Shown here in pieces: positions 1,336 to 19,933 of a stretch of DNA of 20,000 nucleotides (position 1 is its first letter; each line of letters starts with the position of its first letter). Source of the DNA: an uncultured virus (IMG/VR IMGVR_UViG_3300000553_000007) (taxonomy: Duplodnaviria; Heunggongvirae; Uroviricota; Caudoviricetes); the IMG/VR virus record IMGVR_UViG_3300000553_000007; one strand, given 5' to 3'. The position numbers and the translations under genes were made by a program. The notes below the pieces were generated by a model that was given only the letters and a program-made list of their open reading frames with translations, had not been told where the DNA came from and did not search any database.

Positions 1336-2067
1336 TTAAATAGTTTTTTTGACTTTTTTTATGATGAATTTGACTAGAGCGCTTCTTACTATATCATCTT
1401 CTGTGAATTTAAACACATGGATTCCGTTAGCTCTTGATTCCTCATCATCAAAATAAGATATCATTTTTATAAAACCACTCTTACCGTTAATATCTGATTG
1501 GTCAGCGTCACCTAATATAAATACTTTACTAAATTCGCCTGTTCTGGTTATCAATGTGAATAGTTCTTTCACGGTCATGTTCTGAGCTTCATCAGAAATT
1601 ATAACCTTAGCATTCCAATTCAACCCTCTTAGGAACCCTACAGGAACAGAAGATATTCTTTCTTCTTTTTTAAGTCCCTCAATTTCTTGTACCGGTAGTA
1701 ATTCCATCAACTTGTCAACTAACGGAGCTAGATAAGGAGCCATTTTATCGTCTGCTTCTCCTGGTAGAAATCCGAGTTTTGATTCTGACGATTCAACTGC
1801 AGAACGAATGTAAATCAAATCACTAACTCTTCTTTCATTTAACATTTGAAGGGCCGCGTATACTGCCATATACGTCTTTGATGTTCCTGCTGGTCCAGAT
1901 ACAAATACTATTTTTGTATCTTTATTCATAGCAACTTCTAAGAATTGCTTTTGTTTATCATTTAATTCTCTTTTGCGAATTGATAATTGATTTTTGATTT
2001 TATTACGTTGTGGAATACTCGGGCTTGTGTCCTGAACTTTAGTTTGGTCGATGCGTTTTGTTTTCAT
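1336..2067 (-). CDS. phoH: PhoH-family ATPase
   Basis: GPAGTSKT Walker A variant, LGFLPG, FLRG, DEAQN, LITRTG, GDADQSD and DIVRS motifs. Confidence 0.95.
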   Translation of the reverse strand: MKTKRIDQTKVQDTSPSIPQRNKIKNQLSIRKRELNDKQKQFLEVAMNKDTKIVFVSGPAGTSKTYMAVYAALQMLNERRVSDLIYIRSAVESSESKLGFLPGEADDKMAPYLAPLVDKLMELLPVQEIEGLKKEERISSVPVGFLRGLNWNAKVIISDEAQNMTVKELFTLITRTGEFSKVFILGDADQSDINGKSGFIKMISYFDDEESRANGIHVFKFTEDDIVRSALVKFIIKKVKKTI

Positions 2068-5810: not shown

Positions 5811-6000
5811 TAGATACAGAATTTTAAGGTTATCTCCTGGACCATTTTTACAACTTATCCATTGTTGAGTGGTCTTTTTACAACTTTACTCTGTTGGGCG
5901 TTTTTACAGTAGTCACTGCTACCCCTGTCAAAGACAGGATTGTGAGCCTTGTTAGGCTTGTTTTTTAGCTAGATATTTTTATCTGCTGTTACCGTATCTA
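5811..6000 (-). ncRNA. stem-closed structured RNA of unknown family (AGATAC..CAGCA family, long form)
   Basis: Ends pair (TAGATACGG/CTGTATCTA); several internal hairpins; no ORF in track. Confidence 0.55.
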
Positions 6001-6003
6001 AAT

Positions 6004-6077
6004 TGGTGGAGCCAAAGGGAATCGAACCCTTATTTCAACACTGCCAGCGTCGTGTCTTACCATTGGACGATGACCCC
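6004..6077 (-). tRNA. tRNA-Ala(GGC)
   Basis: CGACG-CTGGCAG-TGTTG; G3:U70; ACCA end. Confidence 0.92.
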
Positions 6078-6081
6078 ATTT

Positions 6082-6479
6082 TGTGACGTAGCCGTAACCG
6101 CCGTTTTGTTTTATCTCTACATTTATCTCAGTATTTCTACTGGTTCTCCGTTAAAGAGAACTGCTCCAACCTTTCCTTTACATCGGCCAACACTAGCCTT
6201 TGGAACTTTAGGATTACTGTTAATTTGTGGTACAAACGAATGTAATGAACAGGAACTATCGGACGTGTATTGGATTACTTGTCTACCTGTTTTCCCTTAA
6301 AGTCTTTCACTTTAAGTTTCCTCCGACTATTTTATGGTTTTACCCACGTTACATTCTCCCAACATCTGCTGTACAGAGGCGAATTTCCTCTGGTAATATC
6401 TTGAACCATTGTCAAGCCTAGTTTCATCAACTTCCGATTCGAACGGACTTATTACCAGCGTAGAGTCGCTTACGTCACA
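6082..6479 (-). ncRNA. rnpB: bacterial-type RNase P RNA
   Basis: P1 TGTGACGTA/TACGTCACA; P2 CTCTAC/GTAGAG; P3 CTGGTAAT/ATTACCAG; CR-I GAGGAAATTCGCC pairs with CR-V AACAAAACGGCGGTTA to form P4; CR-IV AGATAAATG; ~398 nt. Confidence 0.88.
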
Positions 6480-6484
6480 TCAAT

Positions 6485-6512
6485 AATATACATCTAAATT
6501 ATTAAATGTCAA
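6485..6512 (-). promoter_or_regulatory. sigma70-like promoter of the RNase P RNA
   Basis: TTGACA-16 bp-TATATT, ~5 nt before P1. Confidence 0.7.
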
Positions 6513-6524
6513 GCGTTGAAATTT

Positions 6525-6602
6525 TGGTGGTGTCTATGAGATTCGAACTCATACATTTTCACTTCTCAGGCGAACGACTCCTGCCAGTTGGTCTAAGACA
6601 CC
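6525..6602 (-). tRNA. tRNA-Leu(GAG), short variable loop
   Basis: TTCGC-CTGAGAA-GTGAA; 5-nt variable loop; ACCA end. Confidence 0.88.
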
Positions 6603-6607
6603 GTAAA

Positions 6608-6685
6608 TGGTATGCGTGACAGGACTCGAACCTGTGATAAATCTCAGTGTAAATGAGACGCCGTTGCCGCTGGAGCCACACGCAC
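6608..6685 (-). tRNA. tRNA-Val(TAC)
   Basis: TCTCA-TTTACAC-TGAGA; ACCA end. Confidence 0.92.
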
Positions 6686-6886: not shown

Positions 6887-7411
6887 TTATATATCTTTAG
6901 TAATGTCAAGGTTTTTCTCAACTTTAAATCCTTGATATATTAAGATTTCTTTACAAAGTTGTATAAAATCTTCTAAAATCATATCACCTTTAGCAAAATT
7001 TGCTTCTTTACAAGTTAATCCTAAATTATCAAAAGAACATCCCCCGCCCTTTGAAACAGGTATTATATGGTCACATTGATATGTTTTAGGTTGTAATAAA
7101 TCTATTTTTCTACCACTTAAATAACAGATTGGAGTATTAATTAATTTGTCTTTAAATTCATTAGATGAAAAATTCAAAGATTTTCTTTTTTGTAAACAAT
7201 GCCTATTTCCATTAACAAAACTAAAATTATCTTTTTTTCTTTTTAAAATTCCAGTAAGAGTTTTTTTATAATTTTTGACACGTAATTTACATTTGTCTTT
7301 TTGTCCATCGCCACAATGATAAGCAATGGTTCCTTTAGAGCATCCAAGAATAGATTTTATTTCATTATAGGATTTTCCCTCACTTCGTAATTTAAGTATT
7401 TCATTTTTCAT
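6887..7411 (-). CDS. HNH endonuclease with N-terminal HTH (free-standing homing endonuclease-like)
   Basis: LRSEGKSYNEIKSILGCSKGTIAYH (HTH); CYLSG..DHIIPVSKGG..NL..CKEANFAK; start moved to ATG 7411 because the longer ORF runs through a tRNA. Confidence 0.85.
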   Translation of the reverse strand: MKNEILKLRSEGKSYNEIKSILGCSKGTIAYHCGDGQKDKCKLRVKNYKKTLTGILKRKKDNFSFVNGNRHCLQKRKSLNFSSNEFKDKLINTPICYLSGRKIDLLQPKTYQCDHIIPVSKGGGCSFDNLGLTCKEANFAKGDMILEDFIQLCKEILIYQGFKVEKNLDITKDI

Positions 7412-7469
7412 GAATATACATATAAACGAGTTCGAATAAATACGAATAAAAATATTCGAACTATTAAAT

Positions 7470-7562
7470 TGGCGGTTGGAGAGGGATTCGAACCCCCGGC
7501 GGTTTTTTAGGCCGCTATAGTTTTCAAGACTATCGCCATCAGCCGGACTCGGCCACCCAACC
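7470..7562 (-). tRNA. tRNA-Ser(TGA)
   Basis: ATAGT-CTTGAAA-ACTAT; long variable arm; GCCA end. Confidence 0.93.
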
Positions 7563-7571
7563 ATAAATTCT

Positions 7572-7679
7572 TTAATCAAAGCCTGTAATTTCCCAGGCAT
7601 TTAATAATCCATCGTAGGATTCGGCTTCTTGTTGACGACGTTCCTCTTCTTCGGCGTCATAATAATCATCTTCTTCCAT
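7572..7679 (-). CDS. 35-aa acidic peptide (absent from ORF track)
   Basis: MEEDDYYDAEEEERRQQEAESYDGLLNAWEITGFD*, 8 nt after a -10 box. Confidence 0.5.
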   Translation of the reverse strand: MEEDDYYDAEEEERRQQEAESYDGLLNAWEITGFD

Positions 7680-7725: not shown

Positions 7726-7822
7726 TGCAATTTGAGAAGGATTCGAACCTTCGACCAACCCAATCAAGGGTTCGGCATGGCTATCAAGGCCAATACGTTA
7801 AACCACTCCGACACCAAACTAC
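7726..7822 (-). pseudogene. degenerate Ser(TGA)-like tRNA with extended acceptor stem and no CCA
   Basis: Perfect T-arm GAAGG-TTCGAAT-CCTTC; long variable arm; loop CTTGATA; acceptor GTAGTTTGG/TCAAATTGC. Confidence 0.6.
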
Positions 7823-8260: not shown

Positions 8261-8334
8261 TGGAGCCCGGTGTCAGAATCGAACTGACGTTTCTTCGTTA
8301 CAAGGGAAGAGTAATGCCATTATACTAAACGGGC
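8261..8334 (-). tRNA. tRNA-Thr(TGT)
   Basis: CTTCC-CTTGTAA-CGAAG (31:39 mismatch); TCCA end. Confidence 0.88.
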
Positions 8335-8636
8335 AAATTTTCACTGTCTTTTCTAGCTTTCTCGTATGATGAACCTATTTTTTTATATAAATCATTTGGA
8401 TGAAACCCATCTGTATTCCATTTACCATGTGTAATATGAAAATGTTCGGCATTCCAATGACAATCTGGACACAAGGAAATACCATTATTTAGAACATATC
8501 CACCATTTGGCATTTCGTGGCGGTCTGTAATATGATGTGCATCTAATTTTTCTTTATTATTGCACATTCTACATTTACGACCGTCTCTTTCAAATACACC
8601 TTCACGGAATAGGTGTCTTTTTTGATATTTGTTCAT
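8325..8636 (-). CDS. HNH endonuclease
   Basis: VFERDGRKCRMC..LDAHHI..NGISLCPDCH. Confidence 0.88.
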   Translation of the reverse strand: MNKYQKRHLFREGVFERDGRKCRMCNNKEKLDAHHITDRHEMPNGGYVLNNGISLCPDCHWNAEHFHITHGKWNTDGFHPNDLYKKIGSSYEKARKDSENLPV

Positions 8637-12464: not shown

Positions 12465-12568
12465 CAGACACGTCAGGTCACACGATATTCACTATATTTT
12501 TCCGTTATTCATGTGATTGGCAAAACCACCAGGCGCCATTTAGTCCACCCTTGTCAGGGATGTGTCTA
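12465..12568 (-). ncRNA. stem-closed structured RNA, unknown
   Basis: TAGACAC/GTGTCTG terminal stem; internal CCCT-GACA-AGGG and TCACATGA/TCGTGTGA helices. Confidence 0.4.
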
Positions 12569-13099
12569 TGAAATTGTTGATACATACATGCCCATTACAA
12601 TTGCCGCACACGAGCCGACATTTAATGAACGAACTGTACCTCTAGCAGGAATAGTAACGATTCTTTCCGAATTGTCAAGCATGTATTCTGATAATCCCAA
12701 TTGTTCTTCACCGACAACAAACACCGGCGGAAACTGTAGACCGTTGAACGGATTATCATAGATTGAAACTGTCTTATTTTCATACTTTGGAACATTATTT
12801 TCAATACATACTAATGAATAATTTCCATTAATTGTTGAAATGAATTCTTCTTCGGTACGAATGAAATTGATAGGAATATAATGGTGCGTTCCAACGGTGG
12901 AACGTCGGTCATACTGCTTACTACCACCAATATAGATGGCTTCCTTGAAGCCAAAAAAGTTTGCCGAACGAATTACATTACCCAAATTGAAATCCCCTGA
13001 CAAATGCGTCATACCAAAAGCAGCAGTGTGCGCATGGTCACAATAGTTTTCCTTGATTTCTTCCGGTGATAGGGACTTTAAATAATCGTGAACATTCAT
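12566..13099 (-). CDS. SpoU/TrmH-family (SPOUT) RNA 2'-O-methyltransferase
   Basis: NLGNVIRSANFFG, VVGEEQLGLS and VTIP.RG.VRSLNVG motifs. Confidence 0.92.
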   Translation of the reverse strand: MNVHDYLKSLSPEEIKENYCDHAHTAAFGMTHLSGDFNLGNVIRSANFFGFKEAIYIGGSKQYDRRSTVGTHHYIPINFIRTEEEFISTINGNYSLVCIENNVPKYENKTVSIYDNPFNGLQFPPVFVVGEEQLGLSEYMLDNSERIVTIPARGTVRSLNVGSCAAIVMGMYVSTIS

Positions 13100-13104
13100 A
13101 ACTT

Positions 13105-14007
13105 TTATTTTTTTTCGTAGAGATTTAAGTAGTTTTTGCCATATTTTTTCTCTACATATTCAATATATGGTTTGATGTCATTTTTTCCTATGACTGTTAA
13201 TGTGTGTGGAAAATGTAAAAATTTAGATTTATTTTTGTCTGTCATATATCCTTTTACTTCCACATACTCTCCATTATCTAATACAAAATCGGGATAAAAT
13301 TTGTATTTTTTATTTTCAAATTTATACTCAAATCCTTGTGTATTCCTTTTAAATTTTAATTTGTGGTCTAATTGATAAATTACCCACGCCAATTCCCATG
13401 AAGATTGGCAAAAATATCCTTTATACCATCCCTGTTTTCCTCTACCGGAATTTTTTCTATATCCACCTGATTTACCTTTAAGGTATCCGGTTTTATTCAT
13501 CCAAATAGTAGAACATTTTCTTGAACAACAAATTTGATGTTTTTGTGATGGAAACGTTTCAAATTCTATATTACAAGTAGGACATATTTTTTTAATCAAC
13601 TCTGCTGCCGGCCGTATTCCATTAACATTGATAAATTTTATTACATTATTTTTTATAGCCCATAAAGATAATTTTTTCTTTTCTTCATCATTACATTTAT
13701 GATGTCCCCCATTTATTTGAGTATGAATAGATGCACATTTATTTGAGCAATATAAATTATTTTTATTTTTATATAAAATATCCACATTACAATTTAAACA
13801 TTTTTTAGGGGTTTTTAAATATTCATTTTTTAATAATTGAGATTTTATTTTTGAAGTATTATCTTTTGTGAAAATGAATAAATTATAAACATTTAACTTT
13901 TTAAACCTATTTCTTAGAGCATTTAAACTAATTCCATAAAGTTCAGAGTAATATTTGATTGGCTTTGTATAATCTAATTCTTCGATTTTTATATTGATAT
14001 CTTTCAT
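13105..14007 (-). CDS. PD-(D/E)XK endonuclease with Cys-rich zinc-finger repeats (homing-type)
   Basis: CLNC..YCSNKC, CPTC..CCSRKC, SSWE..YPDF..YVEVKG; ATG 14007 chosen over the TTG in the track. Confidence 0.8.
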   Translation of the reverse strand: MKDINIKIEELDYTKPIKYYSELYGISLNALRNRFKKLNVYNLFIFTKDNTSKIKSQLLKNEYLKTPKKCLNCNVDILYKNKNNLYCSNKCASIHTQINGGHHKCNDEEKKKLSLWAIKNNVIKFINVNGIRPAAELIKKICPTCNIEFETFPSQKHQICCSRKCSTIWMNKTGYLKGKSGGYRKNSGRGKQGWYKGYFCQSSWELAWVIYQLDHKLKFKRNTQGFEYKFENKKYKFYPDFVLDNGEYVEVKGYMTDKNKSKFLHFPHTLTVIGKNDIKPYIEYVEKKYGKNYLNLYEKK

Positions 14008-14067
14008 ATTGGTATCAATATATATAGTCGAACTCAATGAAAATACATTGATTTTTAATTATAAATA

Positions 14068-15942: not shown

Positions 15943-16019
15943 TGGCGGGAATAGCCGGATTCGAACCGAGCGTCATTACCGTGACAGGGTAATTGATGAA
16001 ACCACTCTCTTATATTCCC
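15943..16019 (-). tRNA. tRNA-Asp(GTC), weak D-stem
   Basis: TTACC-CTGTCAC-GGTAA; GCCA end. Confidence 0.82.
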
Positions 16020-16570
16020 AAATTTTTATTAATGTATATTTTTTTAACTAATTCTAAAAATCTATTAACTGGCAAATCCCATTTCATAATATTCACGTTT
16101 TTATGAACCCAATGAACGTTATCTTCCGTATATCCTTTTGAACTATCAATTCTGTCCAATGACGCGGTTCCATCGGAAGTTTTTACTTTACTTCTAAAAC
16201 ATATTTCTTCTCCAGATAAAGAACATTTCTTATTTTGTTTTAAAAACATCTCCCATAAAAAATCTATAGTCACATTAAATTCTAAATTTCTTGATTCGGC
16301 TTCTCTTTTTGTTTTTGAAAAATATGACCGACTTAAATCTCCACTACCTTTCCAAGTTAAAGATTCTTTTCCGGTTTTATTAAGAATACAACCACAACTT
16401 TTTTTAGTTCCATTAATCAACAATCGTGATTGGGCAATCGTCTCATTTCCACAATCACATTTACATTTCCACATTGCATGTCTTGTTTTATTTAAATGAC
16501 TAAATTCAACAACTGTTAATTTATTGAATTTTTTACCTTTAATATCTTTTTTGTATGTCAGTATCTTCAT
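16010..16570 (-). CDS. HNH-type homing endonuclease with N-terminal Cys-rich domain
   Basis: WKCKCDCG..SCGC; QNKKCSLSG; ASLDRIDSSKGYTEDNVHWVHKNVNIMK. Confidence 0.88.
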   Translation of the reverse strand: MKILTYKKDIKGKKFNKLTVVEFSHLNKTRHAMWKCKCDCGNETIAQSRLLINGTKKSCGCILNKTGKESLTWKGSGDLSRSYFSKTKREAESRNLEFNVTIDFLWEMFLKQNKKCSLSGEEICFRSKVKTSDGTASLDRIDSSKGYTEDNVHWVHKNVNIMKWDLPVNRFLELVKKIYINKNLGI

Positions 16571-17237: not shown

Positions 17238-17323
17238 TGGCTCCGGTCGTAGGACTTGAACCTACATTGGGATTTCTCCCACTGATTAACAATCAGTTGC
17301 ATTACCAATTATGCTAAACCGGA
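17238..17323 (-). tRNA. tRNA with Asn(GTT) anticodon and long variable arm
   Basis: ACTGA-TTGTTAA-TCAGT; variable arm GGGA-GAAA-TCCC; GCCA end. Confidence 0.88.
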
Positions 17324-17451: not shown

Positions 17452-17542
17452 TGGCTGGTGGCAGAGGACTTGAACCTCCATAATGATTTCTCATATACAT
17501 CTGGGTAACAACCAGGTCTCTTACCAATTAGAGTAACCACCA
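17452..17542 (-). tRNA. tRNA with Asn(GTT) anticodon and long variable arm
   Basis: CCTGG-TTGTTAC-CCAGA; variable arm ATGA-GAAA-TCAT; GCCA end. Confidence 0.85.
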
Positions 17543-17544
17543 AT

Positions 17545-18099
17545 TTAAAGTAATTTTAATTTTTTCAAACGTTTTCTTACCGCTGCTCCTGATATTCCTA
17601 ATGAGGATGCTATATGCGTTTGAGGGATTTTTTTAACAACCCATAAATCGTGTAAATCTATATTATCCCAATCTACCGTTCTTGCCTTTTTCCCGGCACA
17701 TTCTAATGAACAAGTAATTTTTTGTATAGACATTTTTTTATTACAAATTGGACAGTTTGTAAATCGTTCTTCATCTTTTTTATTCTGTTCAATCATAACA
17801 GAGTCATCACATAATCTAATGTTATCTGGAATTTTAGTCATTCCATTATGAACTTCACTATGACAGTTAGCACAAAGTAATACACATTTTTTTAATTCTG
17901 GAATTACATATGCCCATTTTTGTGGGTTGCCCATAACACTACTTAAAGAAAATTCTTTTTTAGATGGGTCTAAATGATGACAATGAAAAGCGTCATTACA
18001 TTTATCATATCCACAAATTCCACATTTGTTGCCAAACGAATTTACAATTTTTTGTTTAAATCGTCGGCGCCACTCTTTTACTTTTATACTATTACTCAT
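17545..18099 (-). CDS. HNH endonuclease with zinc finger and C-terminal HTH
   Basis: CGICGY..HHLDP..CVLLCANCHSEVH; CPIC..CSLEC; IASSLGISGAAVRKRL. Confidence 0.88.
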   Translation of the reverse strand: MSNSIKVKEWRRRFKQKIVNSFGNKCGICGYDKCNDAFHCHHLDPSKKEFSLSSVMGNPQKWAYVIPELKKCVLLCANCHSEVHNGMTKIPDNIRLCDDSVMIEQNKKDEERFTNCPICNKKMSIQKITCSLECAGKKARTVDWDNIDLHDLWVVKKIPQTHIASSLGISGAAVRKRLKKLKLL

Positions 18100-19384: not shown

Positions 19385-19473
19385 TGGTGCTGCCGGTGAG
19401 AGTCGAACTCACGGTGGGTGTTATCCTCCCGATTAAAAGTCGGGTGCTTTCGGCCATCTAAGCGAACGACAGC
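19385..19473 (-). tRNA. tRNA with Lys(TTT) anticodon and long variable region
   Basis: CCCGA-CTTTTAA-TCGGG; ~15-nt variable region AGGATAACACCCACC; ACCA end. Confidence 0.83.
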
Positions 19474-19886
19474 AATATTTCGTTCAAATTACTAAATTCA
19501 TCTATTGTGTGACATTCGCGAACTTGTTTGTGTTCGCCTTTTGTGACACGCAATGTAAAAGTATTCTTGTTTTGACATGCTAATTTAGCAGGTATAAAAA
19601 TAATTTTATCTAAAGCTGGCAAATATACCGAAAACAAATCTATATCGTTTTCATTATATGTATATTTGTATCCATTTGGGCCACACTTTCTTAATGGCAA
19701 TGTAACCATTCCATTTTTTTCTGTGGCATATTTTACTTGAATTTTTACAAGTTTTTGATTAATTTCTGCAATCAAATCAATTTTTGAAAAATCTCCAAGT
19801 TCGGTAAATACGTTTACTCCTAACTTGTGAAGTTCCTTGATTGTTGCCGAATATCCTAGATTTCCCTTTTGTTTACTATGTTTCAT
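19458..19886 (-). CDS. PD-(D/E)XK endonuclease (group I intron-associated PDDEXK-like family, free-standing)
   Basis: KQKGNLG..KIDLIAE..KIQVKY..YNENDIDLFSVY; ATG 19886 follows ATATTTAT. Confidence 0.85.
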   Translation of the reverse strand: MKHSKQKGNLGYSATIKELHKLGVNVFTELGDFSKIDLIAEINQKLVKIQVKYATEKNGMVTLPLRKCGPNGYKYTYNENDIDLFSVYLPALDKIIFIPAKLACQNKNTFTLRVTKGEHKQVRECHTIDEFSNLNEILLSFA

Positions 19887-19933
19887 GATAATAAATATCA
19901 ATCTACGAATCAAAAGAGTAGTAATCTGTTAAT

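Follow-up and report, generated by a model that had tools for sequence, protein, structure and literature searches.

A putative phage-encoded RNase P RNA of bacterial class-A descent within a viral tRNA gene array

The window analysed here, the whole 20,000-nt stretch from an uncultured virus of the Caudoviricetes (IMG/VR record IMGVR_UViG_3300000553_000007), carries on its minus strand, at 6479..6082, a 398-nt RNase P RNA-like gene that lies between two of the window's 33 tRNA genes, all of them on that strand. We consider it likely that this element encodes a phage version of the RNase P RNA subunit, of bacterial class-A descent, and predict that it cleaves the phage's own pre-tRNAs. At the level of sequence, its catalytic-domain architecture was shown to be complete, comprising P1-P5, P7, P15-P17, CR-I, CR-IV, CR-V and a P4 with the bulged U. 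RNase P matures the 5′ ends of tRNAs, and to our knowledge its RNA has been treated as a strictly cellular housekeeping ribozyme. In the literature outside subscription journals, as far as the sources were accessible, our search returned no description of a phage- or virus-encoded RNase P RNA. An earlier note on this DNA had proposed an RNase P RNA encoded in a phage tRNA array; as a statement of homology this is upheld by a covarying family, by Rfam matches to relatives and by the viral context.

Position and parts of the element

The two ends of the RNA pair with each other as P1, and this pairing defines the exact limits of the gene, 6479 and 6082. The strings that had been named as evidence for P1-P4, CR-I, CR-IV and CR-V were all located on the minus strand. 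The parts of the element and its immediate neighbours are listed in the direction of transcription (A4 is the family alignment described below):

6525..6602 (-), tRNA-Leu(GAG), the upstream neighbour
6485..6512 (-), promoter-like site TTGACA-16-TATATT, 11/12 matches, its -10 hexamer ending 6 nt before P1
6468..6479 (-), P1 5′ strand: UGUGACGUA (6479-6471), bulged A, GC; partner 6082-6092
6460..6465 (-), P2 5′ strand CUCUAC, followed by an invariant GC; partner 6115-6120
6390..6458 (-), P3: CUGGUAAUA/UAUUACCAG around three small hairpins, from the MFE fold
6378..6391 (-), CR-I / J3-4 and P4 5′ strand: AGAGGAAAUUCGCC with the bulged U, aligned to the model's GAGGAAAGUCcGg
6373..6376 (-), P5 5′ strand CUGU; partner ACAG at 6217-6220
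6364..6366 (-), 5′ strand GAU of a P7-like 3-bp helix; partner AUU at 6222-6224
6356..6362 (-), UUGGGAG junction, invariant or nearly so in A4 and used in the family pattern
6238..6356 (-), inner module at the S-domain site: closing stem GAAUGUAA/UUACAUUC, long-range helix GUCGGA/UCCGAU, hairpin with GUGAAAG loop
6225..6231 (-), ACCACAA junction, invariant in A4
6217..6224 (-), P7 3′ strand (AUU), A, P5 3′ strand (ACAG), placed by the located strings and family pairing
6163..6212 (-), P15-P16-P17 region: P15 UCC/GGA, P16 UUCC/GGAA, P17 GGC/GCC
6129..6161 (-), two hairpins at the P18 position: GUUCUC-UUUAACG-GAGAAC and CAGU-AGAAAU-ACUG
6120..6128 (-), CR-IV / J18-2: AGAUAAAUG, aligned to the consensus AGAuaaAUG, directly before the P2 3′ strand
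6115..6120 (-), P2 3′ strand GUAGAG
6096..6114 (-), CR-V / J2-4 and P4 3′ strand: AUAAAACAAAAC then GGCGGUU
6082..6092 (-), P1 3′ strand: GC then UACGUCACA (6090-6082)
6004..6077 (-), tRNA-Ala(GGC), starting 4 nt past the 3′ end of the RNA

In the window copy P1 has 11 bp, P2 has 6 bp and P3 is a hairpin, in the same order as in class A, and P2 crosses P4 in the class-A pseudoknot. P3 is unusually long here, whereas it is short in the relatives. P4 is formed by AAUUCGCC and GGCGGUU between CR-I and CR-V and contains the bulged U. Compared with the commonest form in the family, it carries two double changes (G-C to A-U and G-C to C-G), and its final pair is a U-C mismatch (A4 pair 106-417). The compensatory change previously claimed for this helix is upheld. 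The P7-like assignment is matched by RF00010, which aligns the corresponding region of the relative L152 as P7. P17 ends in a conserved UAGUG loop, and the 3′ side of the internal loop together with the P15 strand reads AGGUUGGAGC, which contains GGU and lines up with the type-A consensus GgguuggcGC, so that the GGU loop of P15-P17 is present. The GGU of this internal loop (L15) is the element of RNase P RNA that binds the 3′-CCA of tRNA. The second hairpin at the P18 position has the loop AGAAAU, where class-A P18 has a GNRA-type loop; both hairpins are skipped by R1 (a custom model, see below) and by RF00010, and neither occurs in the relatives L080 or L082. The MFE fold of the 398-nt element had z = -2.77. 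An identical copy is carried by the IMG/VR record G001. Plus-strand open reading frames over the element (82, 64 and 44 aa) were rejected as coding, being antisense to a covarying RNA.

Homology searches and covariation in a viral family

The Rfam models for RNase P of types A and B, which the earlier note had named as a check, did not match the window sequence. A cmscan with all 4227 Rfam families detected no RNase P RNA in the window when gathering scores were applied, and none at E ≤ 10 on 5950-6620, and RF00010 yielded no candidate in G001. The class-B model RF00011 matched neither the window nor any of 12 family members; no other Rfam family matched the element either. A primary-sequence profile (nhmmer, relaxed filters) of 27 verified RNase P RNAs returned only a 14-nt CR-I stretch, which was not significant (E 1.7 on the sub-region). 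Among deposited phages, megablast and blastn of the region found no similar DNA, and the deposited phage genomes held no annotated counterpart of the element. As Rfam misses the window copy, support for its RNase P identity rests on a custom model, on relatives and on covariation.

The sequences for the custom model came from other viral contigs. A degenerate CR-I...CR-V pattern with P4 left free identified 64 viral loci, of which 40 were scanned with Rfam, the other 24 being apparent duplicates by their flanks. Full-score RF00010 genes, of 151-331 bits, were present at 27 of the 40 scanned loci. The majority of these genes have tRNA genes as direct neighbours, and the contigs that carry them reach 497 kb in length; a few of the shorter ones may represent host DNA flanking prophages. 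Of the 13 loci that lacked an Rfam match, one was the window type (L017), another was L045, and the remaining 11, all of low GC, are apparent chance matches. L045 represents another divergent type of phage RNase P RNA, located on a viral contig of 385 kb that has terminal repeats and encodes a terminase; Rfam does not report it at gathering score, R1 gives it 73 bits, and here too the S-domain region (119 nt) is left unaligned.

R1 is a type-A covariance model built from 13 of the 27 Rfam-verified RNase P RNAs, the window sequence not being included. Its alignment was trimmed to CR-I through CR-V and rows with long insertions were dropped, leaving 298 positions and 63 pairs, the model being closed by P4; because calibration was shortened, its E-values are rough. 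With filters off, the top R1 match in the whole window was 6095-6390 (-), with 16.9 bits, a rough E of ~1e-5 and full model span, while the second-best match reached only 7.5 bits. R1 aligned CR-I, P4, the P15-17 region, CR-IV and CR-V, and placed CUCUGUACAGCAG on the P5-J5/7-P7 consensus. Treated as local ends, and so skipped, were 136 nt where an S-domain would lie and 32 nt where P18 would lie, and the score of the window copy thus comes from catalytic-domain motifs only. The 11 chance-like loci were scored as a control because the pattern had preselected CR-I and CR-V in them; none of the 11 gave a full-span R1 match, and the best fragment had 10.5 bits. The first-ranked, full-span match of the window copy, set against these fragments, is evidence that the resemblance is more than chance, as is the covariation described below.

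Relatives were sought through the PhoH gene of the window (1336-2067). We took 80 loci with PhoH 66-100% identical to this gene, with 10-kb flanks. A blastn search with the element matched 23 of the 80 at E ≤ 0.002, and the best diverged match was L092 (E 1e-32); many of the loci that did not match do not extend far enough to include the element region. A regular expression for the CR-I and CR-V of the window, applied to the PhoH-linked loci, found the same phage only; it missed the relatives because these read GAGGAAGUUC and GGCUA. A family-specific pattern then matched 42 viral contigs; these hold 32 unique cores, whose span from CR-I to CR-V ranges from 156 to 360 nt. With three window-type contigs, the family is present in at least 45 viral contigs. 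The homologs found at the PhoH-linked loci measure 212-398 nt, and the smallest family members are L080 with 212 nt and L168 with about 200 nt.

The viral origin of the contig, which had been flagged for confirmation, is supported by the IMG/VR record itself, by the matches of 10 of 16 window proteins to PHROGs (PhoH and numerous homing endonucleases included), and by the terminase on contigs of relatives. Relatives whose PhoH is 66-94% identical come from terminase-bearing contigs that reach 365 kb; the large terminase is encoded by 4 of 5 contigs carrying family members, and one of these terminase contigs, of 365 kb, has a CheckV completeness of 100%. Near another family member, at L170:94-167 (-), a match to the tmRNA model RF00023 scores 36.1 bits, short of the gathering score of 47, and probably represents a tRNA-like domain.

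Curated models connect the family to RNase P. Rfam RNase P models matched six family members at 36-47 bits and E-values of 1e-7 to 2e-14, all below gathering scores. RF00010 matched the elements of L072 (45.3 bits, E 2.2e-14) and L082 (44.1 bits, E 2.7e-13) over the full model span, and the family element was its sole match on both contigs; on three other contigs RF00010 found nothing. It also matched L176 (45.9 bits) and L152 (40.6 bits), and RF00373 matched L168 (47.1 bits) and L165 (36.4 bits). Among 12 further members, an RNase P-clan match at E ≤ 0.01 was obtained for four and none for eight. The RF00010 alignment of L152 spans P1, P2, P3, CR-I, P5, P7, P15-17 with the GGU loop, CR-IV, CR-V and P1′, and skips the S-domain and P18. 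R1, applied to 2 kb of L132, gave 30.5 bits (rough E 1e-11).

Covariation was counted on alignment A4, which holds 14 members including the window copy. Duplicates (L073, L076, L081, L083-L085, L087/L102), the truncated L086 and L088, in which the 3′ P1 strand could not be placed, were left out. An explicit 60-pair structure was written onto A4 and its pairs were counted; a 56-pair version was 90.7% paired. With the 60 pairs, standard pairs filled 89.5% of cells, against 34.3-39.6% when the 3′ partners were slid by 1-3 columns, and 44 of the 60 pairs showed changes on both sides, against 9-21 when slid; this comparison is biased in favour of the structure, which was partly derived from the same A4 sequences, but the bias does not suffice to explain so large a gap and so many types of pair. 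None of 500 shuffles reached any of the pairing measures. By helix, P1 was 90.4% paired with both-side changes in 7 of 10 pairs, and the P3 base was 88.8% paired. P2 and P5 were both 100% paired (4 of 6 and 3 of 4 pairs covarying, respectively), the P4 pseudoknot 99.1% (5 of 8) and the P7-like helix 97.6% (2 of 3). Helices 7-9, in the P15-P17 region, were 73%, 72% and 100% paired and covarying, and helices 10 and 11, the hairpins at the P18 position, covary as well. A4 contains 66 invariant columns. Judged from these alignments, the window element is unambiguously a member of a covarying RNA family.

Inner module, tRNA array and predicted function

The region from UUGGGAG to ACCACAA is extremely variable across the family. 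It measures about 112 nt in the window copy, whereas in L176 and L080 it shrinks to a short stem capped by a loop of 7-12 nt; other family members carry unrelated inserts at this site. A class-A S-domain (P7-P14 with CR-II and CR-III) was not recognised here, the module being skipped by R1 (136 nt) and, in L152, by RF00010 (137 nt). The inner module of the window is shared by L152, L165 and L159, and a consensus fold derived from only these four sequences has 29 predicted pairs, 12 of them with both-side changes. It consists of a stem that closes the module, a long-range helix that covaries, and a hairpin whose GUGAAAG loop is conserved. Between L152 and L176, 247 of the 251 aligned positions match, and a cleanly bounded 104-nt stretch of the module is present in L152 and absent from L176; the module is therefore dispensable or mobile. 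With the module, L152 scores no higher with RF00010 than L176 does without it. The module may derive from the class-A S-domain or may have taken its place. Further inserts of about 100-130 nt occur at the P18 position in L151, L171, L174 and L183, so that the S-domain site is not the only place of expansion.

Upstream of the element, the dedicated TTGACA promoter that had been claimed from the letters corresponds to the near-consensus site listed above (11/12 matches). A TTGAC[AT]-N16-18-TAnnnT site lies upstream in 15 of the 32 unique family members, and the upstream tRNA directly adjoins the element in 5 of the 32. A leader, AGUUCUUUGAGAUUU, between promoter and P1 and ~20 nt upstream of P1, is conserved in most relatives, its carriers including L072, L078, L080, L082, L094 and L101; the window copy and L157 do not have it. 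Downstream, the order of element then tRNA-Ala was found in 7 of 15 regions examined, counting this phage's own.

The array itself encodes the 3′-CCA in 32 of its 33 tRNAs. The one exception, a weakly called tRNA-Ser(UGA) at 7727-7820 (-) (38.2 bits), may represent a decayed duplicate of another tRNA-Ser(UGA), the one at 7470-7562. In ARAGORN structures, both copies of tRNA-Asn(GUU) (86 and 91 nt) and tRNA-Lys(UUU) (89 nt) have long class-II-type variable arms. Such arms are normally confined to Leu, Ser and bacterial Tyr tRNAs, and their presence here raises the question of the charging synthetase. HNH and PD-(D/E)XK endonuclease genes, probably homing endonucleases, are interspersed in the array; the first of them probably starts further in than listed, because its open reading frame overlaps the tRNA-Ser at 7470-7562. 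A gene for a SpoU-family RNA 2′-O-methyltransferase (Pfam E 4e-21) also lies in the array and may represent a tRNA-modifying enzyme brought by the phage.

17238-17323, 17452-17542 and 19385-19473 (-), the three long-arm tRNAs (two tRNA-Asn, one tRNA-Lys)
6887-7600, 8325-8636, 13105-14037, 16010-16570, 17545-18099 and 19458-19913 (-), array endonuclease genes
12566-13099 (-), SpoU-family methyltransferase gene

For the protein partner, none of the 20 window ORFs scanned matched RnpA, in agreement with the observation in the earlier note that the window holds no such gene. PF00825 (RnpA) was likewise found in none of 10 viral records (a 36.9-kb fragment of this phage and nine others), with control genomes positive.

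In the reading that we favour, the sigma-70-type promoter of the element would drive co-transcription of the RNA and the downstream tRNA-Ala, and the 3′ end of the RNA would be freed by an RNase P cut at the 5′ end of that tRNA. The partner protein would be host RnpA, since no phage copy was found in the records searched. The RNA would cleave the 5′ leaders of the phage's many pre-tRNAs, with its GGU loop reading the CCA encoded by 32 of the 33 array tRNAs, and would thereby raise RNase P capacity during infection or free it from the expression of host rnpB. Catalysis is made more plausible by the class-A C-domain, which by itself has been reported as catalytic, at reduced efficiency (PMC5839562); it counts against this reading that loss of the S-domain lowers the activity of the engineered E. 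coli RNA of that study.

The earlier note suggested that the enzyme may be tuned to atypical substrates; what the sequence shows in this respect is the variable module at the S-domain site and the three long-arm tRNAs of the array. Speculatively, and with a low probability of holding in full, this reading can be extended to a modular phage RNase P, in which a bacterial-type core would carry a plug-in module that is gained, lost or exchanged between near-identical phages and tuned to their own pre-tRNAs, including the class-II-like tRNA-Asn and tRNA-Lys, and in which the RNA would mature itself, possibly in cis, by cutting the tRNA-Ala 4 nt behind it. The module also bears on a different explanation, which we regard as unlikely, namely that an RNase P-derived ribozyme has been retargeted to phage polycistronic RNAs, tRNA-like structures or host RNAs, with the module as a new recognition domain and perhaps no need for a protein. 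A structured module with both-side changes in 12 of 29 predicted pairs would suit such a domain, as would its differences between members, the presence or absence of the 104-nt stretch between RNAs identical at 247 of 251 positions, and the quite different inserts at the same site elsewhere. However, L176 and L080 keep everything else with only a 7-12 nt loop, so the module is not essential to the core function, and both the location in a tRNA array and the CCA-binding loop point to pre-tRNA as the substrate.

The absence of RnpA genes from all 10 viral records means that a protein partner must be the host's, and the specificity domain is unrecognisable; both observations are compatible with a non-catalytic mimic that retains the face of RNase P RNA bound by the protein, and that soaks up host RnpA or competes with the host M1-type RNA and so disturbs host tRNA maturation instead of processing phage tRNAs. 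We think this quite improbable, given that positions required for chemistry and substrate docking, beyond those for protein binding, are kept and covarying (the bulged U of P4, the A-run of J3/4, J18/2, J2/4 and the GGU of L15), and that the gene sits inside an array of substrates, 32 of 33 tRNAs having the CCA that L15 reads. A functionless, decaying relic of a captured bacterial rnpB gene would account for scores far below the Rfam thresholds and for an unalignable S-domain, but it is very improbable and largely refuted by covariation: 44 of 60 pairs are compensated, a result reached by 0 of 500 shuffles, across phages whose PhoH is only 66-94% identical, and 66 columns of A4 are invariant and promoters conserved. 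That the resemblance is due to chance, or to a structured RNA unrelated to RNase P, has next to no probability left and is refuted at the level of homology, because, despite the non-significant primary-sequence profile search, curated RNase P models match members over the full span with E down to 2e-14 and no other Rfam family matches the element.

If the element is indeed a phage RNase P RNA, tRNA 5′ maturation would join the steps of translation brought by large phages. The family would supply natural minimal or modular class-A RNase P RNAs, and the pair L152/L176, differing by the 104-nt module, would probe the role of the specificity domain; the RNA is also a candidate compact ribozyme scaffold. 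For annotation the family would mark a blind spot: the curated thresholds of Rfam miss the whole family and the window copy is invisible even at E ≤ 10.

Comparison with known RNase P RNAs

The element is closest in plan to class A (RF00010; the rnpB or M1 RNA type), and bacterial class A gave the best curated match in four of the six matched family members. It shares with class A P1-P3, the P4 pseudoknot with the bulged U, P5, P7 and P15-P17 with the GGU loop, and it also keeps CR-I, CR-IV and CR-V. It differs in its scores, with RF00010 giving 40.6-45.9 bits in the matched members and no match for the window copy, against a gathering score of 100 bits. The P8-P14 specificity domain is unalignable and a variable module stands in its place, and J3/4 is one A shorter in most family members. 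The gene is, moreover, phage-borne and lies inside a tRNA array, with an RnpA gene in 0 of the 10 viral records searched.

A reduction of similar kind is described for the archaeal type T of Thermoproteaceae, which retains its C-domain but has lost most of the S-domain (Chan, Brown & Lowe 2012, PMC3579882). According to that paper, the C-domain of type T is of archaeal type, its P2 comprises just 3 bp, and its P10 ends in a small loop or is missing. The phage family likewise keeps the catalytic domain and lacks the S-domain, and its smallest members (L080, L168) are similar in size to type T. Both were missed by the Rfam models of their time because the S-domain is lost. The phage family differs from type T in having a P2 of 6 bp that is 100% paired, a core of bacterial class A, and a viral instead of a cellular setting. 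The window copy, at 398 nt, is not small, because P3 and the inner module are expanded. To judge from these features, the family resembles type T in plan yet is not a member of it.

The other parallel is an engineered one. An E. coli RNA reduced to the C-domain cleaves with or without the C5 protein, at reduced efficiency, and P18 is dispensable in that setting (Mao et al. 2018, PMC5839562). The members of the phage family that have neither the module nor the hairpins at the P18 position are its natural parallel; unlike the construct, the phage genes form a natural, conserved and covarying family.
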